Position numbers and translations under genes: made by a program. The notes below the pieces were generated by a model. It was not told the DNA's origin, did not search any database, and saw only the letters and a list, made by a program, of their open reading frames with translations. DNA of 64,000 bases, from positions 9,086 to 73,085 of the forward strand of contig JBBDJV010000020.1 in assembly GCA_040879725.1 (NCBI GenBank). Direction: 5' to 3'. This document shows, in pieces, positions 23,350 to 53,609 of this stretch. The first letter of the stretch is position 1, and every line of letters begins with the position of its first letter. This stretch comes from Minisyncoccota bacterium (GTDB lineage: Bacteria; Patescibacteriota; Minisyncoccia; Phycocordibacterales; GCA-2401445).

Positions 23350-24447
23350 CTACTTCTTCCACCCAAGAGCCTCAACAGGGACTATCACGTCTTCATCTAA
23401 ATCCTTTTCCGCAACCAAGCCATAAAGCTTTTCCATGTCTCGGGGCTTAATACCGGTCCCTGGACCTTTTATCGTAAACATATCTTTTGTGAGTACCTCT
23501 CCCTTTTTTATCACTCGCTTTGTCGCAACACTCTTTGCGAGCTTATCTCGTAGTGGCTTCAATTCTTCATGCATTGTTTTCCCTCCCTTTCCAAGAATTT
23601 TCTCAATACGGCGAATTGAATCAACGAGCTCTTTGAGTTCATGGGGTTCAAGAGACCCTGCATGGTCTGAACCTTTCATCTGCTTATCAAGCGTCAAATG
23701 TCGCTCCACTATAACCGCACCTCGTGATACCGCAGCAAGTGTCGGCAACAAATCTATTTCATGCCCGGAATACCCGACTGGCAGTGGATGAAAAGTCCTT
23801 TTCAGTGTATCCATAAATGCAAGCTCAATCATGTGCTCCGGAGACGGATAAAGTGAAAGACAGTGGAACACAACGACGCGGTTATTGTGCTTAAGTACGG
23901 TACTTACCGCATCTTGTATTTCGTCAAATGTATTCATCCCGGTAGAAATAAGTACCGGCTTATTCTTTTTGGCTATATATTCAAGAAGAGGAATATTTAT
24001 TGTATCGGCAGAAGGCACCTTGTAGGCATCTACATCAAATGACTCGAGAAAATCCGCGCTTCCCTTATCCCACGCACTTGCAAAAAAGAGTACTCCGTTT
24101 TTCTCAGCATACTTCTTCAATTCCCTGTACTGATCTTCATTAAACTCAAGTGCATCTCTGTGGGCTCCGTACGTAGGAGCAAATGCATTTGGAGATGTGT
24201 ATGGTTTATCGAGTCCTTCCTTGGTAAGAATTTCTTTCGTGGTACGCTTTTGAAACTTCACCGCGTCCGCGCCTGAATCACGCGCGACATCAATAAGTTT
24301 TTTTGCAATCTCCATATCGCCGTTGTGGTTAATACCCACTTCGGCAATAACAAACACGGGTTCCCCCGGTCCCACGTATTTTTTACCGATCTTTACTTTT
24401 TCAGGATGCCCGTTTAAAAACTGTTTAATTTTATCGAAAATATTCAT
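23350..24447 (-). CDS. neuB: NeuB-family nonulosonic acid synthase (Neu5Ac or KDN 9-phosphate synthase type) with a C-terminal SAF domain
   Basis: IAEVGINHNGD, KFQK and PSADTINIPLL motifs of the NeuB TIM barrel, plus a C-terminal antifreeze-like domain; 365 aa. Confidence 0.8.
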   Translation of the reverse strand: MNIFDKIKQFLNGHPEKVKIGKKYVGPGEPVFVIAEVGINHNGDMEIAKKLIDVARDSGADAVKFQKRTTKEILTKEGLDKPYTSPNAFAPTYGAHRDALEFNEDQYRELKKYAEKNGVLFFASAWDKGSADFLESFDVDAYKVPSADTINIPLLEYIAKKNKPVLISTGMNTFDEIQDAVSTVLKHNNRVVVFHCLSLYPSPEHMIELAFMDTLKRTFHPLPVGYSGHEIDLLPTLAAVSRGAVIVERHLTLDKQMKGSDHAGSLEPHELKELVDSIRRIEKILGKGGKTMHEELKPLRDKLAKSVATKRVIKKGEVLTKDMFTIKGPGTGIKPRDMEKLYGLVAEKDLDEDVIVPVEALGWKK

Positions 24448-24581
24448 GAATTTATACTACCAGAAACTACTTAAGTATGGAAGAAATATACATCCATACT
24501 CTCAAAATGAGTAGCAAATAATGCTTCTACACTGGAAATTTGAATACTACAGGGCAAATTCATGCCTTAACAAAGCCATTT

Positions 24582-24615
24582 AAATGCGCACGCCGGCGTG
24601 CGCATTTATTTTTAT
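24582..24615 (+). repeat. GC-rich palindromic repeat, copy 2 (core 24586-24603), with a T-run; terminator-like
   Basis: AAATGCGCACGCCGGCGTGCGCATTT followed by ATTTTTAT. The flanking 45 bp (24536-24581) match the flank of copy 3 in inverted orientation. Confidence 0.8.
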
Positions 24616-24703
24616 AGAGGTTTAACCTCGTTTGAAATAACTTAATTCAGAAGTCTTACTATATATCGTAAGAAATGCTTTTTGATCAAAGTAACTCAGT
24701 GGC

Positions 24704-25336: not shown

Positions 25337-25407
25337 ATCTATAGTATGAAGTAAAAATCAGAAAAAAACCACTTCGAATGAAGCTTAGCCCAGCAACACA
25401 AAACTCT

Positions 25408-25980
25408 TTACTTTCTAGAGAGGCTAAGTGGGTCTACGCCTTTTACCTCAAGAAGAATATTGCAAAAATCTCTTATCGCGCCGTCTCCGCCCCGCCTATC
25501 CGTAACAACATGCGCAATATCTTTAATTACCGTTTCCGCCTGCTGTGGAGCAACTGCTATGCCAACCTTTTTCATTATTTCCGCGTCACCCACATCGTCC
25601 CCCATGTACGCGCACTCATCCCAAGAAATACCATTTTCACTAAGCCACCCCTCTATCGCCTCTGTTTTGTTTTTTGCCTTGTCACCAGTAAATACGCCAA
25701 GCGGTTTCCAATCTCCATTAAGTACTGAAGGGAGGTTATTTAACTTCACCCCAAAAGAGTCCATGAGTCCGAGCTTCTCGGTACTTACCAATGCCACCAA
25801 AAGACCTGCGGATCGGATAAGTGAAATACCTTGTCCATCAATATGGCTTCGTGTTGCGGTATACTCTCCCTCCTTTGGTCGTATAGAAACAACTTCAGAA
25901 AAAAATACTCCGTAACTATCAAATACAACCGCTTTGAGGTTTTTGATCTTCTCTTTTACGCTAGGGACTACACTATCCAT
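25408..25980 (-). CDS. HAD-IIIA phosphatase of the KdsC type (candidate nonulosonate 9-phosphate phosphatase)
   Basis: VVFDSYGV (DxD-like motif I context), YMGDDVGD and GGDGAIRD are typical of KdsC/KDN-9-P phosphatases. It sits between the NeuB- and NeuA-type genes. Confidence 0.65.
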   Translation of the reverse strand: MDSVVPSVKEKIKNLKAVVFDSYGVFFSEVVSIRPKEGEYTATRSHIDGQGISLIRSAGLLVALVSTEKLGLMDSFGVKLNNLPSVLNGDWKPLGVFTGDKAKNKTEAIEGWLSENGISWDECAYMGDDVGDAEIMKKVGIAVAPQQAETVIKDIAHVVTDRRGGDGAIRDFCNILLEVKGVDPLSLSRK

Positions 25981-26701
25981 TGTTTTTCTTATTATGCTGA
26001 TCCATTAAATACTCATAGAGATCCCAGTCGTTTGGCTGGTTAATTCCGCTATATGCTTCATCCAACATCATCGGGACCATATTTCCACTCATAACTTTTT
26101 TCTCAAGAATTGTTTTTGCCCATATCGTATCAATGTAGCCAACATGCTTATACGCTTTTGGTAGTGACAACTCTTGTTTGTTATATGCTTCATCATTCCC
26201 TAGTTTTATTAATGGTTCAAGAAAGCCAGTTTCTTCATTTACAGTAAACATTTTATACGGGCTTTGCTCGGGACGAGTAACTGTCCGCACAGAGTCTGCT
26301 TCCGGATGCTTCACCAGTAATTCTATTGAGAGATCCACTTGAGCCACAGTTCTCATAGGAGAAGTCGGACGAAGCTGGACAATAATATCGGGCACATACC
26401 CTTCTCTCTCTTTTAGTTCAGTAAGTGCGTGAAAAAACGCATCGAAATCAGTCGAGCTATCCCCGGCTATTTCAGGTGGTCGCAAAAACGGAACTTCAGC
26501 ACCCAAAGTTTTTGATAATTCTGCAATCTCCTCTGAATCAGTAGAAACGATAGTTCGGTCTATATACTGCGAACCAAGCGCATGCTCTACTGAATACTGC
26601 ATAAGAGGCTTACCACAAAGTGGTTTAATATTTTTCTTCGGAATCCGCTTTGACCCCCCACGAGCGGGGATAATAGCGAGAACGTTTAATTCATTTATCA
26701 T
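25973..26701 (-). CDS. neuA: Acylneuraminate cytidylyltransferase (CMP-nonulosonate synthetase)
   Basis: The IPARGGSKRIPKKN motif is characteristic of the CMP-NeuAc/CMP-KDO synthetase family; 242 aa. Confidence 0.8.
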   Translation of the reverse strand: MINELNVLAIIPARGGSKRIPKKNIKPLCGKPLMQYSVEHALGSQYIDRTIVSTDSEEIAELSKTLGAEVPFLRPPEIAGDSSTDFDAFFHALTELKEREGYVPDIIVQLRPTSPMRTVAQVDLSIELLVKHPEADSVRTVTRPEQSPYKMFTVNEETGFLEPLIKLGNDEAYNKQELSLPKAYKHVGYIDTIWAKTILEKKVMSGNMVPMMLDEAYSGINQPNDWDLYEYLMDQHNKKNNG

Positions 26702-26737
26702 AGCATCACTATAGCATATGCAGTATAACCAAATAAT

Positions 26738-27964
26738 TTACCTATTTAATGCACTGATTTGATTCACAAGCTCTTGTCTACCTGCGTCAATCCGATCCTT
26801 ATCCCACACCTTCTCCTTAATTTCTTCTCGTTGTTTTTGGTACCCATCACTCCCCGCAAGAGTTTTTTCAAGCGCAACAAGTAATTCATCAAAAGTCATT
26901 ACCTTTTCCCCTGGTGTTATATCATCATACTCAAAATACATCTCGCGCATTTCACTCTTATACTTATCCAAATCATATGCAAAGAAAATTGTCGGCCTAT
27001 CCGCAAAAAGAAAATCAAAAAATACAGAAGAATAGTCGGTAATAAGAACATCTGTTTTTTTCATGATTGGGTAAGGATCTGTCGATGTATCCACGAAGTA
27101 AATTCGCTTAAATTCATGGTTACGTTTCTCCTCGTGGTGGAATTTAATAAATAAATAGGCATCGTTTGTTTCTAAAAAGTTTTCCAACTTGTCAAAATCA
27201 ATACCGCTGTCACGAAGTGGGTTTTGTGTACCATCTCTAAATGTCGGCATATAAAAAATAATCTTTGACCCTTTTTCTTTCAGAGAGACTGCCCGAGTAA
27301 GGTTCAACTCATCTGCCCCAACACTGTGCAAGGGATTATCTTCCAACCATATCGCATTTCTAGGGTAATCAGCTTTAATAATTCTATCCTCTGCAAGCCG
27401 TGACGCAGACATAAAGAGAGGATCCCATAACTTTCCTGGTGATAGGAAATAATTTCCAAAGAAAAACCTTTCTGGACTATAGAGAAAATAAATAAACCTT
27501 TTAAACCCTTTCGAAGCATATACAAAATTATCTTTCTTTGTTCTATGAGAGTCATACATAACCTTCTTGAGCATGATAGCATGCCAAAGATTAACTACCT
27601 TTGCGCCACCGGTAAGAAAATAATTTACACCCAATGGATGGCAGTCTGTAATTACAATTTCAGCGCGCATTGTTAACCACCAACCCTTAAGTGAATTCGC
27701 CTTTTCAGAATAAATGTTTAAATTTCGCAATTGAGATACAATTTTCTCTTCCCTACTCAACCATACAGCAGTAATACCTTCCTGTTCTTTAGCGTACAAA
27801 AAAAAGTATTTTGAGTTATCCGCAAACCGCACCCCTCTCCATGAATCAAATATCCATAATCCTTTTTTTCGAGGAATAAAGGTAAATACCCATCTCATTA
27901 TCAATAATGGAATATTGCGAATGGTAGACGGAATTGCTCTGGCCCAATTGATAATTTTTTTCAT
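26738..27964 (-). CDS. TagB/TagF-family CDP-alcohol (glycerol/ribitol)-phosphotransferase
   Basis: C-terminal signature VLITDYSSVFFDFLFADRPTIFFAYDLDKY matches the TagF catalytic region. Confidence 0.7.
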   Translation of the reverse strand: MKKIINWARAIPSTIRNIPLLIMRWVFTFIPRKKGLWIFDSWRGVRFADNSKYFFLYAKEQEGITAVWLSREEKIVSQLRNLNIYSEKANSLKGWWLTMRAEIVITDCHPLGVNYFLTGGAKVVNLWHAIMLKKVMYDSHRTKKDNFVYASKGFKRFIYFLYSPERFFFGNYFLSPGKLWDPLFMSASRLAEDRIIKADYPRNAIWLEDNPLHSVGADELNLTRAVSLKEKGSKIIFYMPTFRDGTQNPLRDSGIDFDKLENFLETNDAYLFIKFHHEEKRNHEFKRIYFVDTSTDPYPIMKKTDVLITDYSSVFFDFLFADRPTIFFAYDLDKYKSEMREMYFEYDDITPGEKVMTFDELLVALEKTLAGSDGYQKQREEIKEKVWDKDRIDAGRQELVNQISALNR

Positions 27965-28155: not shown

Positions 28156-29535
28156 TTATAATCTCTCAACAAACAGTTGTGCTAATCGCTTTCCCGCATT
28201 TCCATCAAACGGCTCGATAAAACGCTCCACTATTTTCTTTCTCCCTTCAGCGTGTAGTTCTGGAGTTTCCATATACGCGCATACCGCCTTTCCTAATTCT
28301 TCCTGTGCATACGCTACCACCACCCCTTCTTGTTGTACCAGTTCCTCAAAGTGCGTGTATAAATCATAAAACCTCCTTACTGACTCCCAGTAGTTTACTT
28401 GTTCATAAGGAGTACTACCATCAAACGCAATACATACTATCGGACGATTAAGCACCGCTCCGTCTATGGCGATAGTGGAAGCACCTGTCAGCACTACATC
28501 ACTATAGTACAAAATGGAAACCAAATCTTCATTCTGATTCTTCTTTGATTGAGCTTCTTGTGTATTTACATACTTGCCTTTAGTATCCATGACAACGTGC
28601 TGAAGTCCGTCTGCAACATCGTCATTAATCATGAACTTCGGATGTGCACGATAAAGCACCTGGACATCTGGACCAAAGTCGCCTCGTGATACCATTCCTT
28701 CAAAGACTTCTGGGAGTTCAGCCTCGTGCATAAAAAGAAACGTACCCATTGCACCATACGAAAGTATTTTCTTTGCTGAATCTAGGCCTTTTCGTTTACA
28801 AAACTCATCTCGTGACTCCTGTGGTTTAGTAAATCCAAATAGTGCATCGTAGTGTGGTACGCCAAATAGTTCAATAGGTACTGACTCAGGAATAACTTGT
28901 ACTCCCCGCGCCATTTCCTTTAAAAAGGAGTTCTGGAGGAATAGTTTGTCAGGAAGGACGCGAAGCAATCCATGACTTGAGAGGTTGTCCCAGCTACGCA
29001 CACATCCGTATATTGGTATCTTTTTCTGCTTACACGTCTTTGCTATCGGCACATCAAATTCAAAATTAGTAAGTGATAAAGAAAGCAATGCGTCCGGTTT
29101 GTACTTATCAATCAACAGTAAAGCGTTTGTGTCGGAAGAGGTCTTTAGAATACTTTTTCGCAGAAGGTTCTTGTACCACCCAAACTGAGCAAGGGTTTTA
29201 GTATGAACTCTCTTGATATACGTATCGAAAAAACTTGAATCTCCGCGTTTGTATGAACGCATTTTAGACCACAAGTTTGTATGAGTATCCAGTCCACTCC
29301 GCGCAAGAGACATAAGCAGAGACTCAATTTTGGTCGCTCTGGAACGAGTAAAACCTTCCACAGATACATGTGAATATTCTTTATACTTTTCTTGGAAAAA
29401 AGAAACCTTATCGGGCTGAACCAAAAGCACTACTCTGTCATTAACAGTGGCACCGAAGAAAACAGATGCGAAGTCCGTATCAAGTATATTTCGCGCAACA
29501 ATATCTTCCCCGATGGTAACGAAAAAAGTGCTCAT
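28156..29535 (-). CDS. GT-B fold, TagF-like putative glycosyl-/glycerophosphotransferase
   Basis: C-terminal SDVVLTGASTIAIDGAVLNRPIVCIAFD resembles the TagF/GT-B donor-binding region. The assignment is tentative. Confidence 0.35.
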   Translation of the reverse strand: MSTFFVTIGEDIVARNILDTDFASVFFGATVNDRVVLLVQPDKVSFFQEKYKEYSHVSVEGFTRSRATKIESLLMSLARSGLDTHTNLWSKMRSYKRGDSSFFDTYIKRVHTKTLAQFGWYKNLLRKSILKTSSDTNALLLIDKYKPDALLSLSLTNFEFDVPIAKTCKQKKIPIYGCVRSWDNLSSHGLLRVLPDKLFLQNSFLKEMARGVQVIPESVPIELFGVPHYDALFGFTKPQESRDEFCKRKGLDSAKKILSYGAMGTFLFMHEAELPEVFEGMVSRGDFGPDVQVLYRAHPKFMINDDVADGLQHVVMDTKGKYVNTQEAQSKKNQNEDLVSILYYSDVVLTGASTIAIDGAVLNRPIVCIAFDGSTPYEQVNYWESVRRFYDLYTHFEELVQQEGVVVAYAQEELGKAVCAYMETPELHAEGRKKIVERFIEPFDGNAGKRLAQLFVERL

Positions 29536-30281
29536 TATTTATCCAATGGTTTTTCTACAACACCCAATATAGATACACCAAACGGAATGGAAACTATTCT
29601 CACAATATACTTCTCAAATGCAATCATGTTTCGCAAAATTACATTTAGCCACCCTGGTATTGGTACGAAGTCGTCTTTCTGTGTCTTAGTAAGACGTTTT
29701 AATTTTCTAAATATAAAGAGTGGAAAGAGAAATAGTGGTTCTATGTAGGTAATTTGTTTTGTAGTAAAACCAGCTTTCTCTAGTTTCCTTTTTATTTCTG
29801 TTTTTGTATAGCGTCGATAGTGGCCATACTGGTCATCGTGATGTCCCCACATGAACATATACGCAGGCAAGCTAAATACCAACTGCCCTCCTGGTTTTAG
29901 CACTCGATACGCCTCCTGTATAGACACAGCGTCATCCGGAGTGTGCTCAATAATATCAAGTACAATTATCGTATCAAACGTATTGTCAGGAAATGGAATA
30001 TTCTCAATTCCCGAAAGCTGTAGTGTGTTGTACCCCTTTCCTTTGGCAAGAGTCATTGCTTCGGGAGAAAAATCTATACCGTCTACCGTACCATACGGTT
30101 TAAGCAAATCTATCAAGTTACCCGGGCCACACCCCGCATCAAGAATTCTGCGTTCACCCTTTTTTGTTTTCATGTGAGCGCCATGTCGACGCATCAGGTC
30201 TATCACGATTGCATACTTGCCTCCGAGCCACCAATAGTCTGCTCCAAGCTCACCATAGTGCTCCTGCTCTTGTTTAAACAT
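29535..30281 (-). CDS. Class I SAM-dependent methyltransferase
   Basis: ILDAGCGPG motif I and a Methyltransf_11-like layout. Confidence 0.7.
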   Translation of the reverse strand: MFKQEQEHYGELGADYWWLGGKYAIVIDLMRRHGAHMKTKKGERRILDAGCGPGNLIDLLKPYGTVDGIDFSPEAMTLAKGKGYNTLQLSGIENIPFPDNTFDTIIVLDIIEHTPDDAVSIQEAYRVLKPGGQLVFSLPAYMFMWGHHDDQYGHYRRYTKTEIKRKLEKAGFTTKQITYIEPLFLFPLFIFRKLKRLTKTQKDDFVPIPGWLNVILRNMIAFEKYIVRIVSIPFGVSILGVVEKPLDK

Positions 30282-30283
30282 AA

Positions 30284-31216
30284 TTAAAATCCTTTCTTTT
30301 TACTAATAATATACGTGGGGCGTTGTTTCGTTTCGTCATAAATACGTCGTATATACTCCCCCACAACCCCCAAAGCAAGCAGTTGCGCACCTCCAAGACA
30401 GAGAACAAATATCGCAATTGATGCAAAACCGGGTATATCTTTTTCACCGAACAACTTGAAGTATAGCACAACAAATATACCAATGAATGCGACAACTGAA
30501 AAAAGAAAGCCTAGCATTGTTACAAGTAGTAACGGCATATACGAAAATGAGAATATTCCATCGTAGGCAAGCTTGAAGAGTTTCCAGTATGAATACTTAC
30601 TCTGCCCAGCAAACCTCTCTTGCCGTTCATACCGAATACCTGTTTGTTTAAAACCGGACCATGCACGCAACCCTCGCACATATCGGTTTCTCTCAGGAAG
30701 ACCTCGCAATACATCCGCAACATTTCTACCAATAAGCGCAAAATCCCCAGCATCATGTGGAAGTGATACCTCTGGAGTCATTCGAGTTATAAGTCTATAA
30801 AAGAGATAATAACTCAAACGTTTTATGATTGATTCTTTACGAGTGCCTCGCACCGCATACACAACATCAAAACCTTCTTCATATTTTTTTATAAAATCTG
30901 GAATTAATTCAGGTGGGTCTTGCAAGTCTGCATCCATCACCAAAACAGCATCGCCGGTAGCATGGTCTATGCCAGCAGTAACAGCGGACTGGTGACCAAA
31001 ATTTCTTGAAAAGTGAACCGCCCTTAAAGAAGAATTTTTCTCCAGAGCACGATCAAGAAGTTCTGCTGTTTTATCGGTTGAACCGTCATTAATAAAAATA
31101 ACCTCATACTGATACTTTACCCCAGATAGTACTGTAGTAAGGCGCTCCAAAAGCTCACCGAAAGTTTCTTCTTCATTATAAAGCGGTACGACGACGGATA
31201 TAGTAGGCATATACAT
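30284..31216 (-). CDS. GT2 polyprenyl-phosphate sugar transferase (ArnC/GtrB/DPM1-like)
   Basis: VVVPLYNEE, DGSTD and DADLQDPPE motifs with two C-terminal TM helices. Confidence 0.75.
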   Translation of the reverse strand: MYMPTISVVVPLYNEEETFGELLERLTTVLSGVKYQYEVIFINDGSTDKTAELLDRALEKNSSLRAVHFSRNFGHQSAVTAGIDHATGDAVLVMDADLQDPPELIPDFIKKYEEGFDVVYAVRGTRKESIIKRLSYYLFYRLITRMTPEVSLPHDAGDFALIGRNVADVLRGLPERNRYVRGLRAWSGFKQTGIRYERQERFAGQSKYSYWKLFKLAYDGIFSFSYMPLLLVTMLGFLFSVVAFIGIFVVLYFKLFGEKDIPGFASIAIFVLCLGGAQLLALGVVGEYIRRIYDETKQRPTYIISKKKGF

Positions 31217-32585: not shown

Positions 32586-32603
32586 ACCAAAGGATTTTTT
32601 GTT

Positions 32604-33302
32604 CTATCTTTTTCTCAATATAAACAGAACAGATCTTCCGAAGAATTTATTATTTGGTAAAAATCGATGCAAAAAAGAAAATTTTCCATATCCTAATTCA
32701 GGATCCATAAACCTGAGACCTTCTACCGAAAAATATTTCTTAATGGCATTTCTCATTAGTGCGTTATGTAAAAAAGTAATGTGATCATTACCTTCTAAAA
32801 AACGATAATATTCACCGTTTTTGAAAAAAGAAAATTTATTATATATATGATAAGGATTAGGAGTAGTAAATATCATTACCCCATCTTGCTTGAGAACTCT
32901 ATGACACTCTCTGAAAAAATGAAAAATATTTTCAAGATGCTCTATCACCTCCACAGAAGTAATTGCGTCTACTGAAGCATCTGGAAATGGAAACATATCC
33001 TTACTAAAATCAAACTCACTAAAACCCTCTTTTGGTTCTCCAACAGAGAGATATCGACTGATATCAGCCCCCATTGTATGGTTAAATCCAAGTGAATGTA
33101 GTAAATTAAAAATCTTTCCATTTGCTGAACCAAGGTCAAGAATATTCCTATCAGAAGAGAAAAAGGTTTTAAGAGTATCGCTAAACACGCTATGTTCTAG
33201 TATTTTAGTTGATGTACTTTTATACTTCTCAAAAATCTCCTGAGAGTGATCTTTCATTTCAGAAGGCGAAAAATACGGTATTGCTTTACTTTTTTTCTCC
33301 AT
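32604..33302 (-). CDS. Class I SAM-dependent methyltransferase
   Basis: ILDLGSANG motif I, an acidic motif II and VMIFTTPNP. Confidence 0.65.
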   Translation of the reverse strand: MEKKSKAIPYFSPSEMKDHSQEIFEKYKSTSTKILEHSVFSDTLKTFFSSDRNILDLGSANGKIFNLLHSLGFNHTMGADISRYLSVGEPKEGFSEFDFSKDMFPFPDASVDAITSVEVIEHLENIFHFFRECHRVLKQDGVMIFTTPNPYHIYNKFSFFKNGEYYRFLEGNDHITFLHNALMRNAIKKYFSVEGLRFMDPELGYGKFSFLHRFLPNNKFFGRSVLFILRKR

Positions 33303-46649: not shown

Positions 46650-46681
46650 TGCAGTTGAACAGAAAATACCCTGAGAAAAGG

Positions 46682-47344
46682 TTAGAAAAACTTGGTGGGA
46701 ACTTTTACAATGCCTTTTTCTCTATCTTCATATGTCGTATATAGTTTTGGCTCACCAGTCTTTCGAAGTACATAAATAATTTCATACGCAAATCCTGGAT
46801 ACTTTAGAGGATGAAAAGCAAACTTAGTCTTCACTAATCTAAAAGAAACACCAACCTCGTTTTCAAGAGTAAAACCAACCCTATCAGCAAGAGTACGGAC
46901 ATTGTACCGTGTGAAGCTTTGAAAATGTTCTACCCATTTTGCCTTACATACACGATGCTTGAAATGATGGAAAAAGATATTCAAAACATTCTCCCAGTAG
47001 TAATTAGGATTTGGAGTAGAAAAAACAAGTACTCCGTTAGGTTTCAATACTCTATAAAGCTCAGAGAGTAGTTGAATCGGATTGGCAACATGTGCAAGAA
47101 CACACCCCATAGTTACCGCATCAAAAAAACCATCATCATACGGAATATGTCCATCATTGAGATCAACCTGTCGCACCTCTTTATAACTAGCAGGATGGTT
47201 ATCTGTAACAATATCTATTCCATATATTTCCCCTCCCTTCAAATATAGACTTGGATTCTGTGCATACCCAACATCAAGAACCTTTTCGGCATCTGGATAT
47301 ACGGCATATAATGTTTCAGCAATTAACTGACCTTTGCTTTTCAT
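46682..47344 (-). CDS. Class I SAM-dependent methyltransferase
   Basis: VLDVGYAQN motif I and VLVFSTPNP. Confidence 0.6.
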   Translation of the reverse strand: MKSKGQLIAETLYAVYPDAEKVLDVGYAQNPSLYLKGGEIYGIDIVTDNHPASYKEVRQVDLNDGHIPYDDGFFDAVTMGCVLAHVANPIQLLSELYRVLKPNGVLVFSTPNPNYYWENVLNIFFHHFKHRVCKAKWVEHFQSFTRYNVRTLADRVGFTLENEVGVSFRLVKTKFAFHPLKYPGFAYEIIYVLRKTGEPKLYTTYEDREKGIVKVPTKFF

Positions 47345-47356
47345 GTGACAAGTATA

Positions 47357-47977
47357 CTACTTCTTCTCCAAAACAAAAAAGTGATGGTACTGATACCCAA
47401 ACGGCACAAAATGTTTTTTGATTGCTCCGTATTTTTTTAAGAGTGTTAGCAAGCGTTCTACTGAATACCCTTTCTTTCCTAATTCCCAGTAATGTTCACC
47501 ATTAAATGTGTGCTCTTTCGGATGTGGTATACGGAATGCAACAGCTATCTCTTTTACTAGTGGTATTTTGAGTAAAAACTTCAGTGGATGACTGAAGTGC
47601 GGAACACTCACTACAATACCCTTTTTTGATACACGCACCATCTCCCGAATAGCACCTTCCACCTGCTCAAATGGAATATGCTCCAGCACCTCAAATGCAC
47701 AGACTACATCAAATGTAGTATCGCCAAATGGAAGTGGCTTCGTAATATCTCCGACTATATCCGGGTGTAAGTCCTCCGCAGTATCGAAAGAAGTGTAGGA
47801 AATCGTTGTGTTATTTTTTATGTATGAACCAAATACCTTATCACCAACGCCTATTTCAAGAATTGAAGAAGGATTGCATAGAAGTACTTCTTTGAGCTGG
47901 TGATGATAACTCACCCACCTACCGACGTGTCCATACTTTTCAAAATTATAATGCTCCTTTTCAACCTGTGTTGTCAT
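47357..47977 (-). CDS. Class I SAM-dependent methyltransferase
   Basis: ILEIGVGDK motif I and AFEVLEHIP. Confidence 0.6.
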   Translation of the reverse strand: MTTQVEKEHYNFEKYGHVGRWVSYHHQLKEVLLCNPSSILEIGVGDKVFGSYIKNNTTISYTSFDTAEDLHPDIVGDITKPLPFGDTTFDVVCAFEVLEHIPFEQVEGAIREMVRVSKKGIVVSVPHFSHPLKFLLKIPLVKEIAVAFRIPHPKEHTFNGEHYWELGKKGYSVERLLTLLKKYGAIKKHFVPFGYQYHHFFVLEKK

Positions 47978-49011
47978 ATGCTCTTTAGTATACGCGGAAT
48001 AAGTGTGGAAAGCTCGTGTTTACGTACCACACTCATGTGTAGCGCCGTTTGTAATTCACGAATGTTGCTAACACCACGTACCCGCTCAAGCGCCTCCACT
48101 AATGACAGAGCGTTTCCTTCCATAAAACTGAGTAGTGATTGATACTCTCCTAATACCTCTCCGCACGCATTATTTGAGGTTATTGGTACCACGCCAACCG
48201 CAAGTGCTTCCAATACCACCTTGTCCAGACTACCGGTAGTACTTGCATGCAGTAGTATATCCATACCCGGAAGAAAATCCGCAAGCTTATTCTGGCTTTT
48301 ACTCCCAACAAAAGAAACTACTGAATGTAGCGCATTTTTCTCCACATACACTTCAAGCGCTTTCTGATATGTATAGTCACGAGGAGTAAGTGGTAAACCA
48401 ACAATAAAGAGATGAACGGGAATTTTTTTTTCTTTGCAGAGCGCCATAGCTTTGAGCAGTAAGAGCTGATCTTTTGCCGGTGAAATCCTGCCAACCGCTA
48501 CGAGATGAAGTGGTGTTGAAAAATCGTGTGGGTTAAAAGAAAAAAGAGTGGTGTCTATACCATGACCTGTTACCACGATTTTTTTACTTGGTATTCTAAA
48601 GCTCTCTTTTGATGCGGTAGTAATAGAGTGTGCGAGAAATGTCGCAACCCGGAGTGAAACAGTTACCGACTTGTGCGTATACCAGAGTACTATTTTCTTC
48701 CCAAGCAACCTCCACAACAGCCCGCCCAATACCACATACTCGGGGTTCATATGCACAAATACCACGTCGTATTCCTTTCGGAGTGTCCATGCGTATGCAT
48801 AGAAATTAAAAATCCTACGGAGTTTTCCCACACCACTTTCTTTTCCTAAACTTTTAACCACAACATTTTCAGGAAATGAATACTCTCCCACACCGAGCGC
48901 CACGACAGAAACTTGCTCCGCGTTCTTTGCGAATTCTTCAATCCACCTATGAAAGAACCCGAGGACAGAATCCTGTCTATTAACGGTTTGTGTCAGTATA
49001 AGAATGCGCAT
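47974..49011 (-). CDS. GT4 glycosyltransferase
   Basis: GT-B C-terminal domain with the E-x7-E region (GSLDKVVLEALAVGVVPI). Confidence 0.65.
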   Translation of the reverse strand: MRILILTQTVNRQDSVLGFFHRWIEEFAKNAEQVSVVALGVGEYSFPENVVVKSLGKESGVGKLRRIFNFYAYAWTLRKEYDVVFVHMNPEYVVLGGLLWRLLGKKIVLWYTHKSVTVSLRVATFLAHSITTASKESFRIPSKKIVVTGHGIDTTLFSFNPHDFSTPLHLVAVGRISPAKDQLLLLKAMALCKEKKIPVHLFIVGLPLTPRDYTYQKALEVYVEKNALHSVVSFVGSKSQNKLADFLPGMDILLHASTTGSLDKVVLEALAVGVVPITSNNACGEVLGEYQSLLSFMEGNALSLVEALERVRGVSNIRELQTALHMSVVRKHELSTLIPRILKSI

Positions 49012-49414
49012 GGTTTTTAAAGGTATGGTTTTTATTCAAAAGGAAGTTTATAACTGAAACAATACAAACCGCGATGGCTTGTGATATAAGTGGTACGAGG
49101 TGTATGCGTTCAATAAACACATGCAGAAGTGCTATGTTTGCAACCAAACCAAAAATAGCAACTCCGGTATACCACACGAACTCTCTTTTTATTTCACCAA
49201 GTATTTTGTGACCGAATGTCCAAAATTTCTGCATCAAAAAATTAACAAAAAGGGCTACAACAAACGCTCCTGTCGCGGCGAGCGGATACCACATTCCTGT
49301 TCGCTCCAACAACCAAAAAATTACAATGCTTAAAAACGCTCCAGTAAGACCCGAAATTCCGTAGCGAAAGAGCAACCTGCGATCTTTAAAATTATCTAAA
49401 AATTTACTGAGCAC
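48980..49414 (-). CDS. GtrA-family small membrane protein
   Basis: Four TM helices and a GtrA-like WTF motif (QKFWTFGHK). Confidence 0.55.
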   Translation of the reverse strand: MLSKFLDNFKDRRLLFRYGISGLTGAFLSIVIFWLLERTGMWYPLAATGAFVVALFVNFLMQKFWTFGHKILGEIKREFVWYTGVAIFGLVANIALLHVFIERIHLVPLISQAIAVCIVSVINFLLNKNHTFKNHAHSYTDTNR

Positions 49415-50273
49415 GTTTCTTTTGTCTTATATAATCCTCGCCGTATACGCCTGACAACTTTTCAATATCTTTGTTGCTCTTCAGAAGAAGCTCGATATTT
49501 TTATCGCGAAGTTCTTCAAGTAATTTCACCCCATGTTCATCTCCCACAAGTGAGCGATACATTTCAGAAAACGCAGAGAAATCTTTTATAAAACAGTTTC
49601 CGCCCGCGCCGCGTCCATTTTTATGAATAGGCGAAAGATGTGTATTGCCGATGCGAGGATCTGCTGAAAGTGCCTGTTCGAGCACCTCCCACTCAAGTCC
49701 TAGCGTAGCAGAAAGGTCGTAGAGCATATTCACAAAAACAACTTTCACAAAAAACCAATTATTTCCCGCGTATTTTATCATCTCCGCGGTTCGTGAATTT
49801 GTAACAAGAACGTACGGAGCATACGGAAGTGCGTCCATAATAGCTTCTGCACGTTCTTTAAATTCACCATTCTCAATCGCCATACCAACAATATTTCTGT
49901 CCGGATGTCCGGCATCGTATTCAGCTGTTGCTTCAGTAAGAAACTCAGGTGAGTGGAATAAAAAATATTCAGAGAATTTTGTTTGGAGTGTTTCGGTAGT
50001 TTTTGGCAACACGGTTGATTTAATAACCACAGATGCACCACGCCCTACGAGAGACAACACTTCTTCAACTGTACTGTAGTCAAAGCCATCCGGAGTACTT
50101 GGGGTAGGAACCGCTATAAAAACCAAGTCGCAGTGCTTTATTCTCTCTCTATTTCCTGCAAATTCAGGATCAAGTCCATAGCGAATAACTTCAAATCCTC
50201 TACTCTCAAAATCATCAGCGTAATTTTTTCCAATATACCCTTGTCCAATGAACCCAATTTTTTTGAATTTCAT
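49404..50273 (-). CDS. Nucleotide-sugar dehydrogenase family protein (UDP-glucose/GDP-mannose 6-dehydrogenase-like, short)
   Basis: N-terminal Rossmann motif IGFIGQGYIGK and the central FSPEFLTEATAEYD...DR motif. At 290 aa from MKFKK it is shorter than canonical UDP-glucose 6-dehydrogenases. Confidence 0.5.
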   Translation of the reverse strand: MKFKKIGFIGQGYIGKNYADDFESRGFEVIRYGLDPEFAGNRERIKHCDLVFIAVPTPSTPDGFDYSTVEEVLSLVGRGASVVIKSTVLPKTTETLQTKFSEYFLFHSPEFLTEATAEYDAGHPDRNIVGMAIENGEFKERAEAIMDALPYAPYVLVTNSRTAEMIKYAGNNWFFVKVVFVNMLYDLSATLGLEWEVLEQALSADPRIGNTHLSPIHKNGRGAGGNCFIKDFSAFSEMYRSLVGDEHGVKLLEELRDKNIELLLKSNKDIEKLSGVYGEDYIRQKKRAQ

Positions 50274-50299
50274 ATGTTTGTATATGAATAGTACTCGAT

Positions 50300-51451
50300 T
50301 TATGACATTTCTGCACGCACACTTTTCCACGCATCACGTGTTTTAAGCACCGCTTGTTCAAATGTTTCCGTTCGAGCAAGAGCCTCTCTTCCTCCCACGC
50401 CATACTTCCTACGAGCCTCAGAATCAGAAAGAGTTTCAACGAGCGCTTCCGCGAGAGCCTCTGCATCATGGCGGGGCACCACCCTGCCGTTTTCTCTGTC
50501 AGTTACCACCTCACCAGCGCATCCCACATCAGTCATAACTACCGACAGTCCACTTGCCAGAGCCTCGACAACCACCCGTGCCCAACCTTCATAGTTAGAA
50601 GAAAGCGCGTATACATCTGCTGTTTTATACAAAGAAGCAACATCGTCACTCCACGCATGCATAACTACGTATTCAGAAACACCAAGCTCTTTAGCACACC
50701 TGCTAATATTTTCTTTTTCATTTCCACTTCCCACGAGCACCAAACGCGCTTCGGGTATTTTTTTCCTAACTTCAACAAATGCCTTTAGAAGCAAAGGTAG
50801 ATTTTTCTGCTTCACCATGCGTCCCACCCACAGAATAAAAGGTCCTGATAAACCCGTCTGTTCACTGAGAGTTGTTTTAGGAGTAGTATTTTTAAAATCA
50901 TCAATATGTGTCACTACCGGAAACCGAACAATCTTTTCAGCCGGTACACCCATTGTCTTTACCGTTCCCTCAATCCTCTTGGAAACAACACGCACCTGGT
51001 TTGCTCGCGGAATAACCAATGTTCCCAGAAAATACCGCACGCGATTAAGCAGTGACTCACACTTCCAGTCTTGTGTGCTAAAGAAATCACCATGCTCCTG
51101 AACCTGAAGAGGAACTCGATACAACCGTGAAAGTAAAAGACCGAGCACACCCGCCTCAAAAGGATCTTGCGTGCTGATAACCCATTCTTTTTCCTTCTGC
51201 TCTTTCAGTATTCTTCGTGAAATTAAAAATGCTTTGAGTAGATGCGTAAACGGTGTTCGCGCATTTGTTGGATACACCACAAGAGAGTCGCTTATGCGCG
51301 TCTTTTGGTGTTTTAGTTTGGCATGAGAAAAAACAACAATATGCTGTTCGAATTCACTCCCTGCGTACGCAACCTGCCTGCGCGCAGAAACAGAATAAGA
51401 AGTAAATAAATCTTTATCGTTTCCTATAACAAGAATTCCTATTCTACTCAT
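50300..51451 (-). CDS. GT4 glycosyltransferase
   Basis: GT-B E-x7-E region (SSNYEGWARVVVEALASGLSVVMTDVG). Start at MSRIGIL gives an ATGA overlap with the upstream gene. Confidence 0.65.
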   Translation of the reverse strand: MSRIGILVIGNDKDLFTSYSVSARRQVAYAGSEFEQHIVVFSHAKLKHQKTRISDSLVVYPTNARTPFTHLLKAFLISRRILKEQKEKEWVISTQDPFEAGVLGLLLSRLYRVPLQVQEHGDFFSTQDWKCESLLNRVRYFLGTLVIPRANQVRVVSKRIEGTVKTMGVPAEKIVRFPVVTHIDDFKNTTPKTTLSEQTGLSGPFILWVGRMVKQKNLPLLLKAFVEVRKKIPEARLVLVGSGNEKENISRCAKELGVSEYVVMHAWSDDVASLYKTADVYALSSNYEGWARVVVEALASGLSVVMTDVGCAGEVVTDRENGRVVPRHDAEALAEALVETLSDSEARRKYGVGGREALARTETFEQAVLKTRDAWKSVRAEMS

Positions 51452-52446
51452 AGTAATGAAAGATATTCTGATAACACCATGTCCCATTCGCGAACTTTCT
51501 TAAATCCTCCCGCTTTCGCAACGTATGATTCATAGTATGCCGGGTAAGACAGAGAACGCATTGCCTCAGCAAGTGAGTCGGTATCAAATGGATCAATAAA
51601 AACACCAACGTCCTTTAGCTCTTCATACAAACCGCAATCTTGAGTTAGGATAAAGGGTTTGTTATAGCGCAAACCCTCAAGAACAATATTGGGAGCTACC
51701 TCTGAAAAAGAAGCAACCACTATCACTCCACATGATGCAATCTTTTTTTCGAGCACGTCAGGAGTAAACGTGCCGGTTACAAGCTCAATTCCACCTTTGG
51801 TTTGAGCTACATCAGTAAATGCGTGCTCGACCCTCTCTATATTTTTAAGAGCAATATTTCGCCCAACTGCAAGAAATGTCTTTTTTGCCTCCGGTTCAGA
51901 AGTTACCGGTATCTTTTCCCCGAAATAGTTTTCAATTACCGTAAATCGCTCGTGGTCAATGTTGTATGCAGGAACGGTAAAATCTCTTTGCCACTCCGTG
52001 GTAAATGCAACAACATCCGCTCTTTTATAGAGCATTTTAGTAAAAAATCGAATTGCTTTTTCTTTAAAAGTAAACTCTCTTTTAACAGAGTAAAAATCAC
52101 TCAGATGAACCATCTGCTTTATCCTCTCAACCCATGCCTCCCATAGAAAGTCACCGCCCACGCGGACAATTATTTTCTTGCGCATTACTTTCGCAGCTAA
52201 AAGCGAAGGTAGTCCCACACTCATAGTATCGAGCGCAATCACTCCCTTTGTTCCGATAAGCTTAAAACACATTTTTAGAAAGAAATAAAAATGACGTATT
52301 CCGCTTGGAAGTTTTCGCTCAAGCGTAAAGGTTGCCACTCGCGCGTGGTGTCCTTTTTCGTGCGCAGTGTGGGTAAGCATCGCGGCATATTTAGCGGGGC
52401 CTCCCACTTGTGGCGGATATACTCCTGTAGCTATTACAAATTTCAT
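51448..52446 (-). CDS. GT4 glycosyltransferase
   Basis: GT-B fold. Start at MKFVIATG gives an ATGA overlap with the upstream gene. Confidence 0.55.
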   Translation of the reverse strand: MKFVIATGVYPPQVGGPAKYAAMLTHTAHEKGHHARVATFTLERKLPSGIRHFYFFLKMCFKLIGTKGVIALDTMSVGLPSLLAAKVMRKKIIVRVGGDFLWEAWVERIKQMVHLSDFYSVKREFTFKEKAIRFFTKMLYKRADVVAFTTEWQRDFTVPAYNIDHERFTVIENYFGEKIPVTSEPEAKKTFLAVGRNIALKNIERVEHAFTDVAQTKGGIELVTGTFTPDVLEKKIASCGVIVVASFSEVAPNIVLEGLRYNKPFILTQDCGLYEELKDVGVFIDPFDTDSLAEAMRSLSYPAYYESYVAKAGGFKKVREWDMVLSEYLSLL

Positions 52447-53609
52447 ATTTTTTTGATTGAAAGACATAGTTCCATAAAATCTCCAGCAAGTCTATCCCAG
52501 CTATATGTTTCAACCGCAAGTCGTCTCCCTGCTTCGGTAATACTCTTTGCGTGTTCAGGTATTTGCATAAGTTCACTTACCGCGTGAGCAAGCGCCCCGG
52601 GATTATCCGGTTCCACCAAAATACCGGTAACTCGGTCCTCTATAAAATCAACTATCCCACCTACTGGTGTTCCGATAACCGGCAGTCCCGCAGACATTGC
52701 TTCAACAAAAGAATTTCCAAACCCTTCAGACCGGGACGTACGCACAAAAACATCGCTTGCGTGAAGATACTTTGGCAACTCATCTTGCGGAATAGTTGGC
52801 ACAAAATGAACCCTATCAAGTACACGCAACTCTCGCGCTAGCTGTGAAAGCGAGGTTCCCAACGGTCCACTTCCAACAATAAGTACGTGTACTTTTTTAT
52901 TCAGCAGAGGAAGAGTACGTACTAATGTATCAAGTCCGTTTTTATACACCAAACGCGACGTACTCACGAGCACATACGCGGAAGTGGGAATATGAAACTT
53001 CTGACGCAATGCATGCTTTTCCACCTCTGAAGCTCGCGCGGTAAACAGAGAAACATCAACTCCGTTTGGAAGTAGTGTAATAGGCGCTTTGGTGTCAGTC
53101 GCTTCCGCGCGCTTTTTTAAGTAGTTACTGATAACAGTAATGTGTGTTGCGGACCGTATAGGAAAATAGTGGAGCGGTCGAACTAAAAAGCGAAAAAGCA
53201 AATCATTGTTGAATACGTACCGTTTGAGATGTACTTCATCATCTCCCTCTTGCAGTGTGAGAATAAAACTTTTTTTATTTCTCATCCTGTGGAAAAGCGC
53301 TCCCGCAAGTCCTCCGAAACTTGCCATAATACCCCAAACACAATCATATGAAATGTGTCGCGAACGAATGAGAGCAACAAAAAAACCAGTCACCGGAAAT
53401 AGGTATTTATCGATAGGGTGTCCAATACCAACCCTTCGTACAGATACGGAACCGATTTGTTCATGCTTTGAGAGTGCTCGAGAATAGCGCGGAGTAAGCA
53501 TGTCAAAAGCAATACGTTCTTCGGGGATACGTTTTGTTAATTCATGAACCGCAATTTCCGCCCCACCTATGTGGGGAAGATAGTCCGTACTAAAAATTAA
53601 GATTTTCAT
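52443..53609 (-). CDS. GT4 glycosyltransferase
   Basis: N-terminal STDYLPHIGGAE and C-terminal RSEGFGNSFVEAMSAGLPVIGT. Confidence 0.7.
   Translation of the reverse strand: MKILIFSTDYLPHIGGAEIAVHELTKRIPEERIAFDMLTPRYSRALSKHEQIGSVSVRRVGIGHPIDKYLFPVTGFFVALIRSRHISYDCVWGIMASFGGLAGALFHRMRNKKSFILTLQEGDDEVHLKRYVFNNDLLFRFLVRPLHYFPIRSATHITVISNYLKKRAEATDTKAPITLLPNGVDVSLFTARASEVEKHALRQKFHIPTSAYVLVSTSRLVYKNGLDTLVRTLPLLNKKVHVLIVGSGPLGTSLSQLARELRVLDRVHFVPTIPQDELPKYLHASDVFVRTSRSEGFGNSFVEAMSAGLPVIGTPVGGIVDFIEDRVTGILVEPDNPGALAHAVSELMQIPEHAKSITEAGRRLAVETYSWDRLAGDFMELCLSIKKI

Follow-up and report, generated by a model that had tools for sequence, protein, structure and literature searches.

Glycomyces sp. and Stackebrandtia nassauensis reportedly make O-methylated phosphonoglycans that bear 2-hydroxyethylphosphonate (HEP), and the ketodeoxynonulosonic acid (Kdn) pathway of Bacteroides thetaiotaomicron consists of a KDN-9-P synthase, the KDN-9-P phosphatase BT1713 and a CMP-Kdn synthetase. 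In fosfomycin biosynthesis the Fom1, Fom2 and FomC steps proceed through CMP-HEP (Cho et al. 2017, in PMC6697681); Fom1, a fusion of a PF01467 cytidylyltransferase and a phosphoenolpyruvate (PEP) mutase (Ppm), turns HEP and CTP into CMP-HEP, and 23.6% of Ppm enzymes are such fusions (PMC6697681). HEP pathways account for 8.5% of ppm neighbourhoods, with only two known products, the methylphosphonate adduct of Nitrosopumilus maritimus and the HEP exopolysaccharide of S. nassauensis (PMC8942020). In marine Prochlorococcus and SAR11, phosphonate cassettes occupy genomic islands, and a role in decorating surface glycoproteins has been proposed for them (PMC8931226); in Tannerella forsythia the TagB-like protein Tanf_01245, whose homologue is BFO_1060, is needed to add the terminal pseudaminic (Pse) or legionaminic (Leg) acid (PMC5420450). 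Here we describe a 30-kb island (positions 23350-53609) in a 64,000-nt stretch of contig JBBDJV010000020.1, hereafter the window, which shares features with each of these systems. We consider it rather likely that this is a variable cell-surface glycan locus of Candidatus Paceibacterota, a lineage of ultra-small bacteria in the candidate phyla radiation (CPR), that would direct a methylated heteroglycan of the Wzx/Wzy_C type, capped with a nonulosonic acid and probably carrying HEP activated as CMP-HEP. Overall this is a known kind of locus; what is new is the occurrence of a nonulosonic-acid cap, a Fom1-type HEP cassette and heavy methylation together in a CPR bacterium. CPR bacteria (Patescibacteria) presumably live attached to host cells, and to our knowledge almost nothing is known of their surface chemistry; in the literature we found no paper linking them to phosphonate or nonulosonic-acid biosynthesis.

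The open reading frames (ORFs) of the window with at least 120 amino acids (aa) were screened against Pfam, and island proteins against NCBIfam with its equivalog cut-offs. The dense surface-glycan locus proposed in a preliminary description of this DNA is real and tightly packed: the island holds 30 ORFs at a coding density of 96.5%, genes overlap at 12 internal junctions (several by 4 nt, of the ATGA type), and the widest spacers measure 256, 208 and 191 bp. Its boundaries are exact, as the related locus L003 has both flanking genes parted by a single gene for GDP-mannose 4,6-dehydratase (Gmd). The locus had been called uninterrupted and essentially all minus-strand; 29 of the 30 ORFs indeed lie on that strand, but one plus-strand gene, which encodes an 808-aa protein with Laminin_G_3 domains (the LamG gene) and is flanked by the 208-bp divergent spacer, interrupts the run, so that the island comprises at least two transcription units. 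Nor is co-orientation specific to the island, because the minus-strand bias and a negative GC skew span almost the whole window (3888-61620). With a GC content of 0.396 the island deviates mildly from its flanks (0.414 and 0.425), which is the only compositional signal apart from the low third-position GC (GC3) of some modules. Insertion as a mobile element was considered and rejected, as the island borders show no tRNA, no integrase-like Pfam match and no significant flanking repeats.

Pfam and NCBIfam matches agree with nearly every class in the proposed gene inventory, namely NeuB, a HAD phosphatase, a CMP-sugar synthetase, two PF04464 proteins (here TagF1 and TagF2), Wzx, five GT4 glycosyltransferases, a CE4 deacetylase, a P-loop protein, GtrA, and six S-adenosylmethionine (SAM) methyltransferases (five of class I plus FkbM). 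A His_Phos_1 gene had been overlooked, however, and the number of GT2 genes is two, with the ArnC-like one included, where three had been listed; there is also the GT-C gene (PMT_2). The nucleotide-sugar dehydrogenase does match UDPG_MGDP_dh but is a short 308-aa form without the C-terminal UDP-binding domain. Homology searches left the methyltransferases and transferases in glycan-type families, with no reassignment to housekeeping functions.

The flanks of the island encode SecA, MurB and Mur ligases, and the host is therefore a bacterium; it is represented by a metagenome-assembled genome (MAG) of Candidatus Paceibacterota, in which the 184-aa ORF at 37605-38159 is identical to NCBI WDZ88_04190, encoded on a contig of 75,467 bp, and the same sequence was also assembled from run SRR27977663. 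Its SecA is at most 65-67% identical to those of other Paceibacteria or Patescibacteria MAGs. When all window proteins were compared by tblastn with 80 SecA-anchored loci, MurB was found beside SecA in 38 of them and the gene for a Wzy_C protein with tetratricopeptide repeats (Wzy_C/TPR) in 47. The gene order in L003 is MurC, TP-methylase, DUF4015, TraG-like ATPase, Gmd, Wzy_C/TPR and SecA; L044 and L026 resemble it in that the flanks are almost adjacent and glycan genes nearly absent, and L053, L017, L018, L025 and L021 hold other glycan genes at the same site. The island thus sits at a fixed chromosomal site upstream of Wzy_C/TPR-MurB-SecA, and because the fill between the conserved flanks differs, the content of the locus is lineage-variable, as had been suspected: among relatives it is nearly absent, refilled or colinear at the same place. 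The genes are not scattered either, for L082 (GCA_964436015.1) is colinear with the window over about 20 kb, from the GT4 gene at 47974 to TagF1 and including the opposite-strand LamG gene, with 44-91% aa identity. In L082, genes for TylF and PhyH, located between Wzx and the GT-C gene, replace the methyltransferase at 32604-33302 and FkbM, and a sulfotransferase-like gene that is truncated in the window (family X, see below) is full length (302 aa). The two replaced genes have the lowest GC of the island (GC 0.316 and GC3 0.236 for the methyltransferase, 0.344 and 0.294 for FkbM) and lack an L082 counterpart, which points to recent cassette swapping. A core of GT4, methyltransferase, short dehydrogenase, Wzx, TagF2, CMP-synthetase and NeuB is common to L096, L097, L098, L100 and L101; it is followed by Wzy_C/TPR in L096, L098 and L100, with MurB-SecA seen downstream only in L096, and none of these five core-sharing loci contains phosphonate genes. 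The locus is a mosaic: its core of nonulosonic-acid genes, Wzx and GT4 is shared with relatives, whereas the LamG gene, some of the methyltransferases and the phosphonate cassette are accessory. It can thus be described as a glycan locus conserved in Paceibacteria, in which a nonulosonic-acid core is combined with exchangeable modules; this suggests that the surface of these bacteria is remodelled through module swapping at one fixed site.

The phosphonate module is genuine, since both its PEP mutase and its phosphonopyruvate decarboxylase (Ppd) pass the NCBIfam equivalog cut-offs (Table 1). The mutase forms the C-terminal part of a Fom1-like bifunctional protein and matches PEP mutases in the PDB with an E value of 7e-44; the N-terminal cytidylyltransferase domain matches the corresponding Fom1 structure (5x3d) at E 2e-51 (178 bits), as opposed to 1.7e-8 (37 bits) for TagD (1coz). 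The third enzyme, an iron-dependent alcohol dehydrogenase (Fe-ADH), reaches 179 bits with Phn_Fe-ADH (TIGR03405), below the cut-off of 423.7 and tied with lactaldehyde reductase. We nevertheless infer that it is the phosphonoacetaldehyde reductase that makes HEP, because its place after Ppd (order Ppm-Ppd-FeADH) is kept in nine related cassettes. HEP would be made, cytidylylated to CMP-HEP and esterified to the glycan. The GC3 of the cassette is 0.25-0.29, compared with 0.43 for Wzy_C.

With the Fom1, Fom2 and FomC steps of the fosfomycin pathway (Cho et al. 2017, in PMC6697681) the cassette shares the PF01467-PEP mutase fusion, the decarboxylase, the Fe-ADH and the predicted CMP-HEP intermediate, but the window contains neither a Fom3 radical-SAM methyltransferase nor a Fom4/HppE epoxidase. 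Since the cassette is, moreover, embedded among glycan genes, a fosfomycin-like small-molecule cluster was rejected, and this glycan-assembly context makes it more likely that CMP-HEP is a transfer donor than a transient intermediate. The Glycomyces and Stackebrandtia phosphonoglycans are another parallel: HEP is reached there through Ppm, Ppd and Fe-ADH, as is predicted here, the cassette likewise lies among glycosyltransferases and SAM methyltransferases, and their product, a methylated glycan with HEP esters, is of the type predicted here from the genes. The present locus differs in belonging to a CPR bacterium, not an actinomycete, and in its additional nonulosonic-acid module, Wzx/Wzy_C pair, triad of GT2, GtrA and GT-C, and X gene. 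The Prochlorococcus and SAR11 islands (PMC8931226) likewise combine a horizontally mobile phosphonate module, a variable surface-glycan region and a proposed phosphonylated surface glycoconjugate, but in other hosts and another habitat; the Fom1-type fusion and family X set the Paceibacteria locus apart. In a further cassette, that of L083 (GCA_018061905.1, Candidatus Pacebacteria), a 394-aa ORF with helix-turn-helix (HTH) and cupin domains (L083:12339-13523) lies inside the Ppd-FeADH-X-cytidylyltransferase/Ppm array and matches the methylphosphonate synthase 6b9s (E 3e-57) better than the HEP dioxygenase 6b9r (E 2e-42), which suggests that some CPR bacteria make methylphosphonate or hydroxymethylphosphonate. 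Methylphosphonate is a precursor of methane, and the homologue bears on its sources outside the ocean.

A candidate for transfer of the activated phosphonate is TagF1, which may use CMP-HEP or a CDP-polyol; as the only PF01467 domain of the window is the Fom1-like one, CMP-HEP is a plausible donor. TagF1 (GC 0.367) is only distantly related to TagF2 and belongs to a distinct subfamily. Its homologues in L082, L100 (beside Wzy_C), L101 and L083 are 61%, 42%, 39% and 29% identical; the one in L101 adjoins a stand-alone PF01467 cytidylyltransferase, that in L083 is paired with an NTP-transferase, and no cytidylyltransferase-type partner is in view in L100. The preliminary description had taken both PF04464 proteins for TagF-like polymerases. 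They would then act as TagF-type primase and polymerase of a poly(glycerol/ribitol-phosphate), glycosylated and methylated by the other enzymes, in a teichoic-acid-like polymer. Both proteins do match Glyphos_transf, TagF1 strongly and with TarF as the nearest NCBIfam model, and the TagD-like neighbour in L101 and the NTP-transferase in L083 would fit such a role. However, the scores of TagF1 with TarF, TarL and TarB (106, 76 and 48 bits) are far under the cut-offs of 550, 1000 and 500, the window's sole PF01467 domain resembles Fom1 far more than TagD, and TagF2 travels with nonulosonic-acid rather than polyol genes. Stand-alone TagD and TarIJ for CDP-glycerol or CDP-ribitol synthesis, TagO/TagA and the TagGH exporter are all absent from the window, in which export is by Wzx. 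A polyol-phosphate polymer is therefore very improbable, and the proposed Wzx/Wzy_C-type heteroglycan fits better. In L101 (6186-11233) a gene for a B12-binding radical-SAM protein accompanies the TagF1 homologue and the stand-alone cytidylyltransferase, in a locus that also encodes NeuC, NeuB and a CMP-synthetase.

Another protein tied to the cassette is the member of family X, for which Pfam and NCBIfam hold no model. X directly follows the Fe-ADH of a Ppm/Ppd/Fe-ADH cassette in nine of 11 contexts (window, L082, L083/84, L087, L089/90, L091, L092, L094, L095); in L085/86 from Tara Oceans it comes after a PhnD-PhnC-PhnE importer and an HTH + NTP_transf_3 gene (a PntC-like nucleotidyltransferase), and in L093, a short contig, after Wzm/Wzt. 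The family is rare: 1.84 billion proteins yielded 263 representatives at E <= 1e-3. A metagenome scan for X loci gave five. The window copy has no significant Pfam match (Sulfotransfer_1, E=0.074, 12.9 bits against a cut-off of 22) and is probably inactive: the other 42 homologues from a word-indexed search are all 289-317 aa long, and relative to L082 a deletion of about 360 bp has removed the C-terminal ~120 residues, including the (nearly) invariant G200, K201 and W204. Family X is of the sulfotransferase fold, with an invariant RSGT loop and an 'xDPxFTVQS' motif in which P140 and S146 are invariant, while the position expected for the 3'-phosphate-binding Arg, in an inferred register, varies (N/S/H/G/A/T). 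An hhalign comparison with TPST2 aligned the 5'-PSB loop only (probability 11%), equivalences beyond the loop not being established, and a profile-versus-PDB sequence search with X found no sulfotransferase.

That the glycan is additionally sulfated, which had been raised as a possibility, would require X to act with 3'-phosphoadenosine 5'-phosphosulfate (PAPS). The RSGT loop is of the 5'-phosphosulfate-binding type, some distant, fused members of the family reach the Pfam gathering score of Sulfotransfer_3, and the related locus L098 has a bona fide Sulfotransfer_1 gene. Yet X is the only candidate and is truncated here, the window contains no sulfate-activation genes, the 3'-phosphate Arg position, in the inferred register, is not conserved, and the full-length family tracks phosphonate chemistry, through Fe-ADH or, in one context, a phosphonate importer, and not sulfate activation. 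We therefore regard sulfation as highly improbable, more so even than a teichoic-acid-like polymer. As a tentative alternative, X might be a repurposed sulfotransferase scaffold that transfers CMP-activated phosphonates such as HEP and methylphosphonate onto surface glycans, its target being a nucleoside-5'-phospho-phosphonate anhydride rather than the phosphosulfate of PAPS. This idea, which we think has a minor but real chance of being right, is based on the near-obligate place of X after the putative phosphonoacetaldehyde reductase gene; on L085, where X is paired with a phosphonate importer and a PntC-like nucleotidyltransferase with no Ppm nearby; on the methylphosphonate-synthase homologue in the L083 cassette, since methylphosphonate has no hydroxyl to sulfate; and on the invariance of the 5'-phosphate-binding loop together with the variable Arg position. 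The step by which glycans receive phosphonates once these have been cytidylylated has yet to be explained (PMC6697681). Family X, which we consider the most valuable by-product of the analysis, is a concrete candidate for it. In L085 (6202-12214) X is followed by a DUF1574-like gene and an FkbH/ACP/MBOAT/carbamoyltransferase set; with the importer and the nucleotidyltransferase gene, the arrangement looks like an import-activate-attach system for exogenous phosphonate. Distant members of the family include fusions of the sulfotransferase-fold domain with a pyruvate-kinase-barrel-like domain (P0159) or with GT4 domains (P0082, P0119).

The proposed nonulosonic-acid module, with NeuB, a KdsC-type HAD phosphatase and a CMP-synthetase, likewise holds. 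NeuB, which is 74% identical to its L096 copy, scores 336.6 bits with NeuB_NnaB (cut-off 399.65) and 230 bits with PseI (cut-off 340), both below threshold, and its best PDB matches are SpsE and NeuB/SiaC (E~1e-51). Structures matched by the HAD protein are YrbI/KdsC phosphatases, the BT1713-type KDN-9-P phosphatase (3e81) and the C-terminal domain of CMP-Neu5Ac synthetase (3ewi). Copies of the CMP-synthetase that are 58-62% identical follow TagF2 homologues in L096, L097 and L100, and the His_Phos_1 gene, which in L100 is likewise placed between NeuB and CTP_transf_3, is a recurrent member of the module. The precursor enzymes NeuC, PseB/C/H/G and LegB/C/H/G were not found: no window ORF of at least 120 aa matches Epimerase_2, DegT aminotransferase or Polysacc_synt_2 dehydratase. 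Since a KdsC-type phosphatase is present and these genes are absent from the window, the pathway probably goes through a Kdn- or N-acetylneuraminic acid (Neu5Ac)-9-phosphate-like intermediate, that is, by a sugar-6-phosphate route, and since PseB/C and LegB/C are absent from the window, the product is probably neither Pse nor Leg. This corresponds to the Kdn pathway of B. thetaiotaomicron, which also combines a NeuB-family synthase, a KdsC-type HAD phosphatase and a cytidylyltransferase without a UDP-GlcNAc 2-epimerase, except that the HAD protein stays below the KDN-9-P phosphatase cut-off (70 versus 180 bits), that a His_Phos_1 gene is added, and that the substrate is a prediction.

TagF2 is probably a CMP-nonulosonate transferase rather than a polyol-phosphate polymerase, because its homologues adjoin CTP_transf_3 and/or NeuB in seven of eight independent contexts, with or without phosphonate genes (window, L082, L096, L097, L098, L100, L053/L017 and L101, but not L099), and because its nearest family is BFO_1060 (NF046086; 43.4 bits, cut-off 200), compared with 17 bits for TarF/TarL/TarB-type models. 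The T. forsythia protein O-glycosylation locus (PMC5420450) similarly has a TagB-like GT-B gene beside nonulosonic-acid genes, together with methyltransferases and a flippase, and its glycan ends in a nonulosonic acid; the low score with the BFO_1060 family and the different phylum and cell envelope set the two apart. TagF2 was also considered as a cryptic NeuC-type epimerase, since UDP-GlcNAc 2-epimerases are the top Foldseek hits, but this similarity is generic to the GT-B fold, the profiles give PF04464/BFO_1060, and L101 encodes a true Epimerase_2 in addition to its TagF2 homologue.

In the order of steps that we infer from the gene families present, cytoplasmic GT4 and GT2 enzymes would build an oligosaccharide on a polyprenyl carrier, and the six SAM methyltransferases would O-methylate its sugars. 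NeuB, the KdsC-type phosphatase and the CMP-synthetase would supply CMP-nonulosonic acid for transfer by TagF2, and the Fom1-like fusion, Ppd and Fe-ADH would supply CMP-HEP, whose phosphonyl group might be esterified to the glycan by TagF1 or, in relatives, by X. Wzx would flip the unit, which the GT2/GtrA/GT-C triad and the CE4 deacetylase could modify outside the membrane before Wzy_C/TPR polymerises the glycan or ligates it to its final acceptor; flippase and Wzy_C-domain protein are both encoded in the window. Of the decorations originally predicted, methylation, the nonulosonic-acid cap and a probable phosphonate are thus retained, whereas sulfation and TagF polymerases lack support. On this prediction, some Paceibacteria would use PEP for two surface components, a sialic-acid-like sugar and a C-P compound.

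Several observations weigh against this interpretation. Substrates are predicted throughout, and no equivalog cut-off is reached by NeuB, the HAD protein, the CMP-synthetase, Fe-ADH or either of the two TagF proteins. The AlphaFold2 model of TagF2 (pLDDT 92) has a generic GT-B fold and its fold search was non-discriminating; L100 and L101 have TagF1 homologues but no phosphonate genes; and X, whose link to the cassette is the tightest of any protein, is truncated, so that phosphonate transfer may be impaired here. No window ORF matches Bac_transf or Glycos_transf_4, i.e. an initiating phosphoglycosyltransferase of the WbaP/PglC or WecA/MraY type, which may lie elsewhere. The relatives compared share only about 60-67% SecA identity, so the variability described is variability above strain level. 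Finally, the locus consists of at least two units, being divided by the plus-strand LamG gene, and more than one glycan could be served by its genes. GT2/GtrA/GT-C triads modify pre-existing polymers, and one may ask whether the triad here, as a side-chain system for another polymer, merely lies beside a nonulosonic-acid glycan core and a cassette for phosphonate decoration, each independent of the others. The independent presence and absence of modules in relatives, the two transcription directions and the differing GC3 of the modules would agree with this. On the other hand, there is a single Wzx and a single Wzy_C gene, tight packing and translational overlaps continue across module boundaries, and the whole arrangement is colinear in L082, and we therefore consider several independent systems unlikely, with one decorated heteroglycan remaining the preferred explanation.

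The final acceptor might be a protein. PglL/PilO O-oligosaccharyltransferases belong to the Wzy_C family, and PgfS, to which the GT2 protein at 30284-31216 is closest, acts in a streptococcal protein-glycosylation system. The gene for Wzy_C/TPR, which follows the glycan genes in L096, L098 and L100, is the conserved anchor of the locus, and its product could be a polymerase, a ligase or an O-oligosaccharyltransferase. Just outside the island lies the gene of an LTD-PKD surface protein with a signal or transmembrane segment (residues 6-29), an acidic Ser/Thr-rich stalk and a C-terminal transmembrane anchor (462-487), which has a weak counterpart in L026. We regard it as a candidate acceptor because it is an anchored protein with a Ser/Thr-rich stalk whose gene shares 4 nt with the first GT4 gene. 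In a general O-glycosylation system a lipid-linked, Wzx-flipped glycan would be moved by Wzy_C/TPR, as by PglL or PilO, onto this protein, the LamG protein or pilins, so that only the final acceptor would differ from the interpretation given above; the resemblance of TagF2 to a transferase of the T. forsythia protein O-glycan and the proposal that marine phosphonates reside on glycoproteins (PMC8931226) accord with it. The specificity of Wzy_C/TPR is, however, a prediction, the matches are all below equivalog cut-offs, L003 has the Wzy_C/TPR gene although it nearly lacks glycan genes, and the LamG protein shows no signal peptide. The product may be a capsule-like polymer or a protein glycan, the latter with an appreciable but less than even chance, about that of the proposed role of X. 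Directly upstream of the island (53606-56993), the LTD-PKD gene is preceded by one for a TraG/VirD4-like coupling ATPase (78% identical in L003), which keeps its place near Wzy_C/TPR-SecA in several relatives.

Table 1. Genes of the island and its immediate neighbours, in order of position in the window
Position	Strand	Product	Best match and remarks
20992..23232	-	Wzy_C membrane protein fused to C-terminal TPR repeats	Wzy_C 74.5 bits + TPR; at least 8 hydrophobic segments
23350..24447	-	NeuB-family nonulosonic acid synthase (NeuB + SAF)	Pfam NeuB 269.7 bits
24704..25336	-	Histidine-phosphatase superfamily	Pfam His_Phos_1 87.9 bits; NCBIfam matches sub-threshold only
25408..25980	-	KdsC/YrbI-type HAD phosphatase	NCBIfam KdsC 71 bits, KDN-9-P phosphatase 70 bits (cut-off 180); both below
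25973..26701	-	CMP-nonulosonate synthetase (CTP_transf_3)	Pfam 86.7 bits; closest NCBIfam PseF 143 bits (cut-off 205.7)
26738..27964	-	TagF1, PF04464 CDP-alcohol-type phosphotransferase	Pfam Glyphos_transf 194 bits, full length
28156..29535	-	TagF2, TagB-like GT-B protein	Pfam PF04464 43 bits, C-terminal half only
29535..30281	-	Class-I SAM methyltransferase	Pfam Methyltransf_11 74.9 bits; L082 91% identical
30284..31216	-	GT2 polyprenyl-phosphate sugar synthase (PgfS/ArnC-like)	Pfam GT2 113 bits; two C-terminal hydrophobic segments
31176..32585	-	GT-C membrane glycosyltransferase (PMT_2)	Pfam PMT_2 33.3 bits; 7 hydrophobic segments; L082 76%
32604..33302	-	Class-I SAM methyltransferase, very low GC	Methyltransf_11 58 bits; no L082 counterpart; L101 copy 44% identical
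33320..34678	-	Wzx/MOP-family flippase	Polysacc_synt 60.6 bits; NCBIfam MOP flippase; 10 hydrophobic segments
34714..35580	-	FkbM-family methyltransferase	Methyltransf_21 58.5 bits; TIGR01444 94 bits (cut-off 37.7)
35653..36918	-	GT4, core gene of related loci	Glycos_transf_1 69 bits; L096, L097, L098, L101 copies 42-48%
36788..37603	-	GT2 glycosyltransferase	Glycos_transf_2 58 bits; L082 73% identical
37605..38159	-	Truncated member of sulfotransferase-fold family X	184 of ~300 aa
38162..39295	-	Fe-ADH, putative phosphonoacetaldehyde reductase (PhpC/FomC type)	Pfam Fe-ADH 137 bits
39307..40440	-	Phosphonopyruvate decarboxylase (Ppd)	NCBIfam TIGR03297 498.5 bits (cut-off 312.5)
40446..41783	-	Fom1-like bifunctional protein: N-terminal PF01467 cytidylyltransferase, C-terminal PEP mutase	TIGR02320 PEP_mutase 381.1 bits (cut-off 319.55)
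41878..42657	-	CE4 polysaccharide deacetylase	Polysacc_deac_1 90 bits; IcaB-like 80 bits, below cut-off; hydrophobic segment residues 4-23
42645..43253	-	P-loop protein (Walker A GLPGSGKS)	Pfam AAA_33 27.4 bits, N-terminal residues only; no NCBIfam match
43250..44014	-	Class-I SAM methyltransferase	Methyltransf_25 42.8 bits; L082 72% identical
44223..46649	+	808-aa LamG protein, three Laminin_G_3 (concanavalin-like) domains	Laminin_G_3 202 bits, 3 stretches
46682..47344	-	Class-I SAM methyltransferase	Methyltransf_23 55 bits; L082 87% identical
47357..47977	-	Class-I SAM methyltransferase, core gene of related loci	Methyltransf_11 38.6 bits; L096, L097, L101 copies 49-61%
47974..49011	-	GT4, core gene of related loci	Glycos_transf_1 63 bits; copies in L082, L096, L097, L101, L091, L092
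48980..49414	-	GtrA-family small membrane protein	GtrA_DPMS_TM 82.7 bits; 4 hydrophobic segments
49404..50330	-	Short nucleotide-sugar-dehydrogenase-like protein, 308 aa	UDPG_MGDP_dh_N 66.6 + central 55.5 bits; C-terminal domain absent
50300..51487	-	GT4	Glycos_transf_1 133.8 bits
51448..52467	-	GT4	Glycos_transf_1 34 bits
52443..53609	-	GT4, first island gene	Glycos_transf_1 132 bits; overlaps upstream surface-protein gene by 4 nt
53606..55117	-	LTD + PKD surface protein, just outside island	LTD 60 bits, PKD 42.7 bits

As regards the remaining genes of the island (Table 1), the GT2 protein at 30284-31216 reaches 265 bits with PgfS and 201 bits with ArnC in NCBIfam, both below cut-off, and forms with GtrA and the GT-C protein the familiar three-component set for extracytoplasmic glycosylation. 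The N-terminal hydrophobic segment of the CE4 deacetylase suggests an extracytoplasmic enzyme. The short dehydrogenase reaches 142 bits with TIGR03026 (cut-off 190); the same short form recurs in L097, L101, L033 and L051 (280-303 aa, 46-52% identity), and it is therefore a distinct short family and not a pseudogene. The P-loop gene has a 44% identical copy in L082 and is absent from the other phosphonate cassettes. The LamG protein, which has a weak match to the fimbrial protein TafC and no N-terminal hydrophobic segment, is 70% identical to an L082 copy in the same place and orientation. The true start of the GT4 gene at 35653-36918 probably lies downstream of the listed TTG, the protein being called with 373 aa in L001.

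Outside the island, a region of about 1 kb (58506-59575) contains no ORF of at least 120 aa and no Rfam or tRNA match, an Rfam search of the whole window having given zero matches; its only notable feature is a 91-aa ORF (58519-58794) with a hydrophobic N-terminus and an acidic tail. Just downstream of SecA, genes for a GH15 glucoamylase-like protein, a 185-aa ORF, GH57 and a GT4/starch-synthase-like protein (11557-16645) make up a small alpha-glucan cluster, which is kept in L041 and L042 at 45-70% identity.

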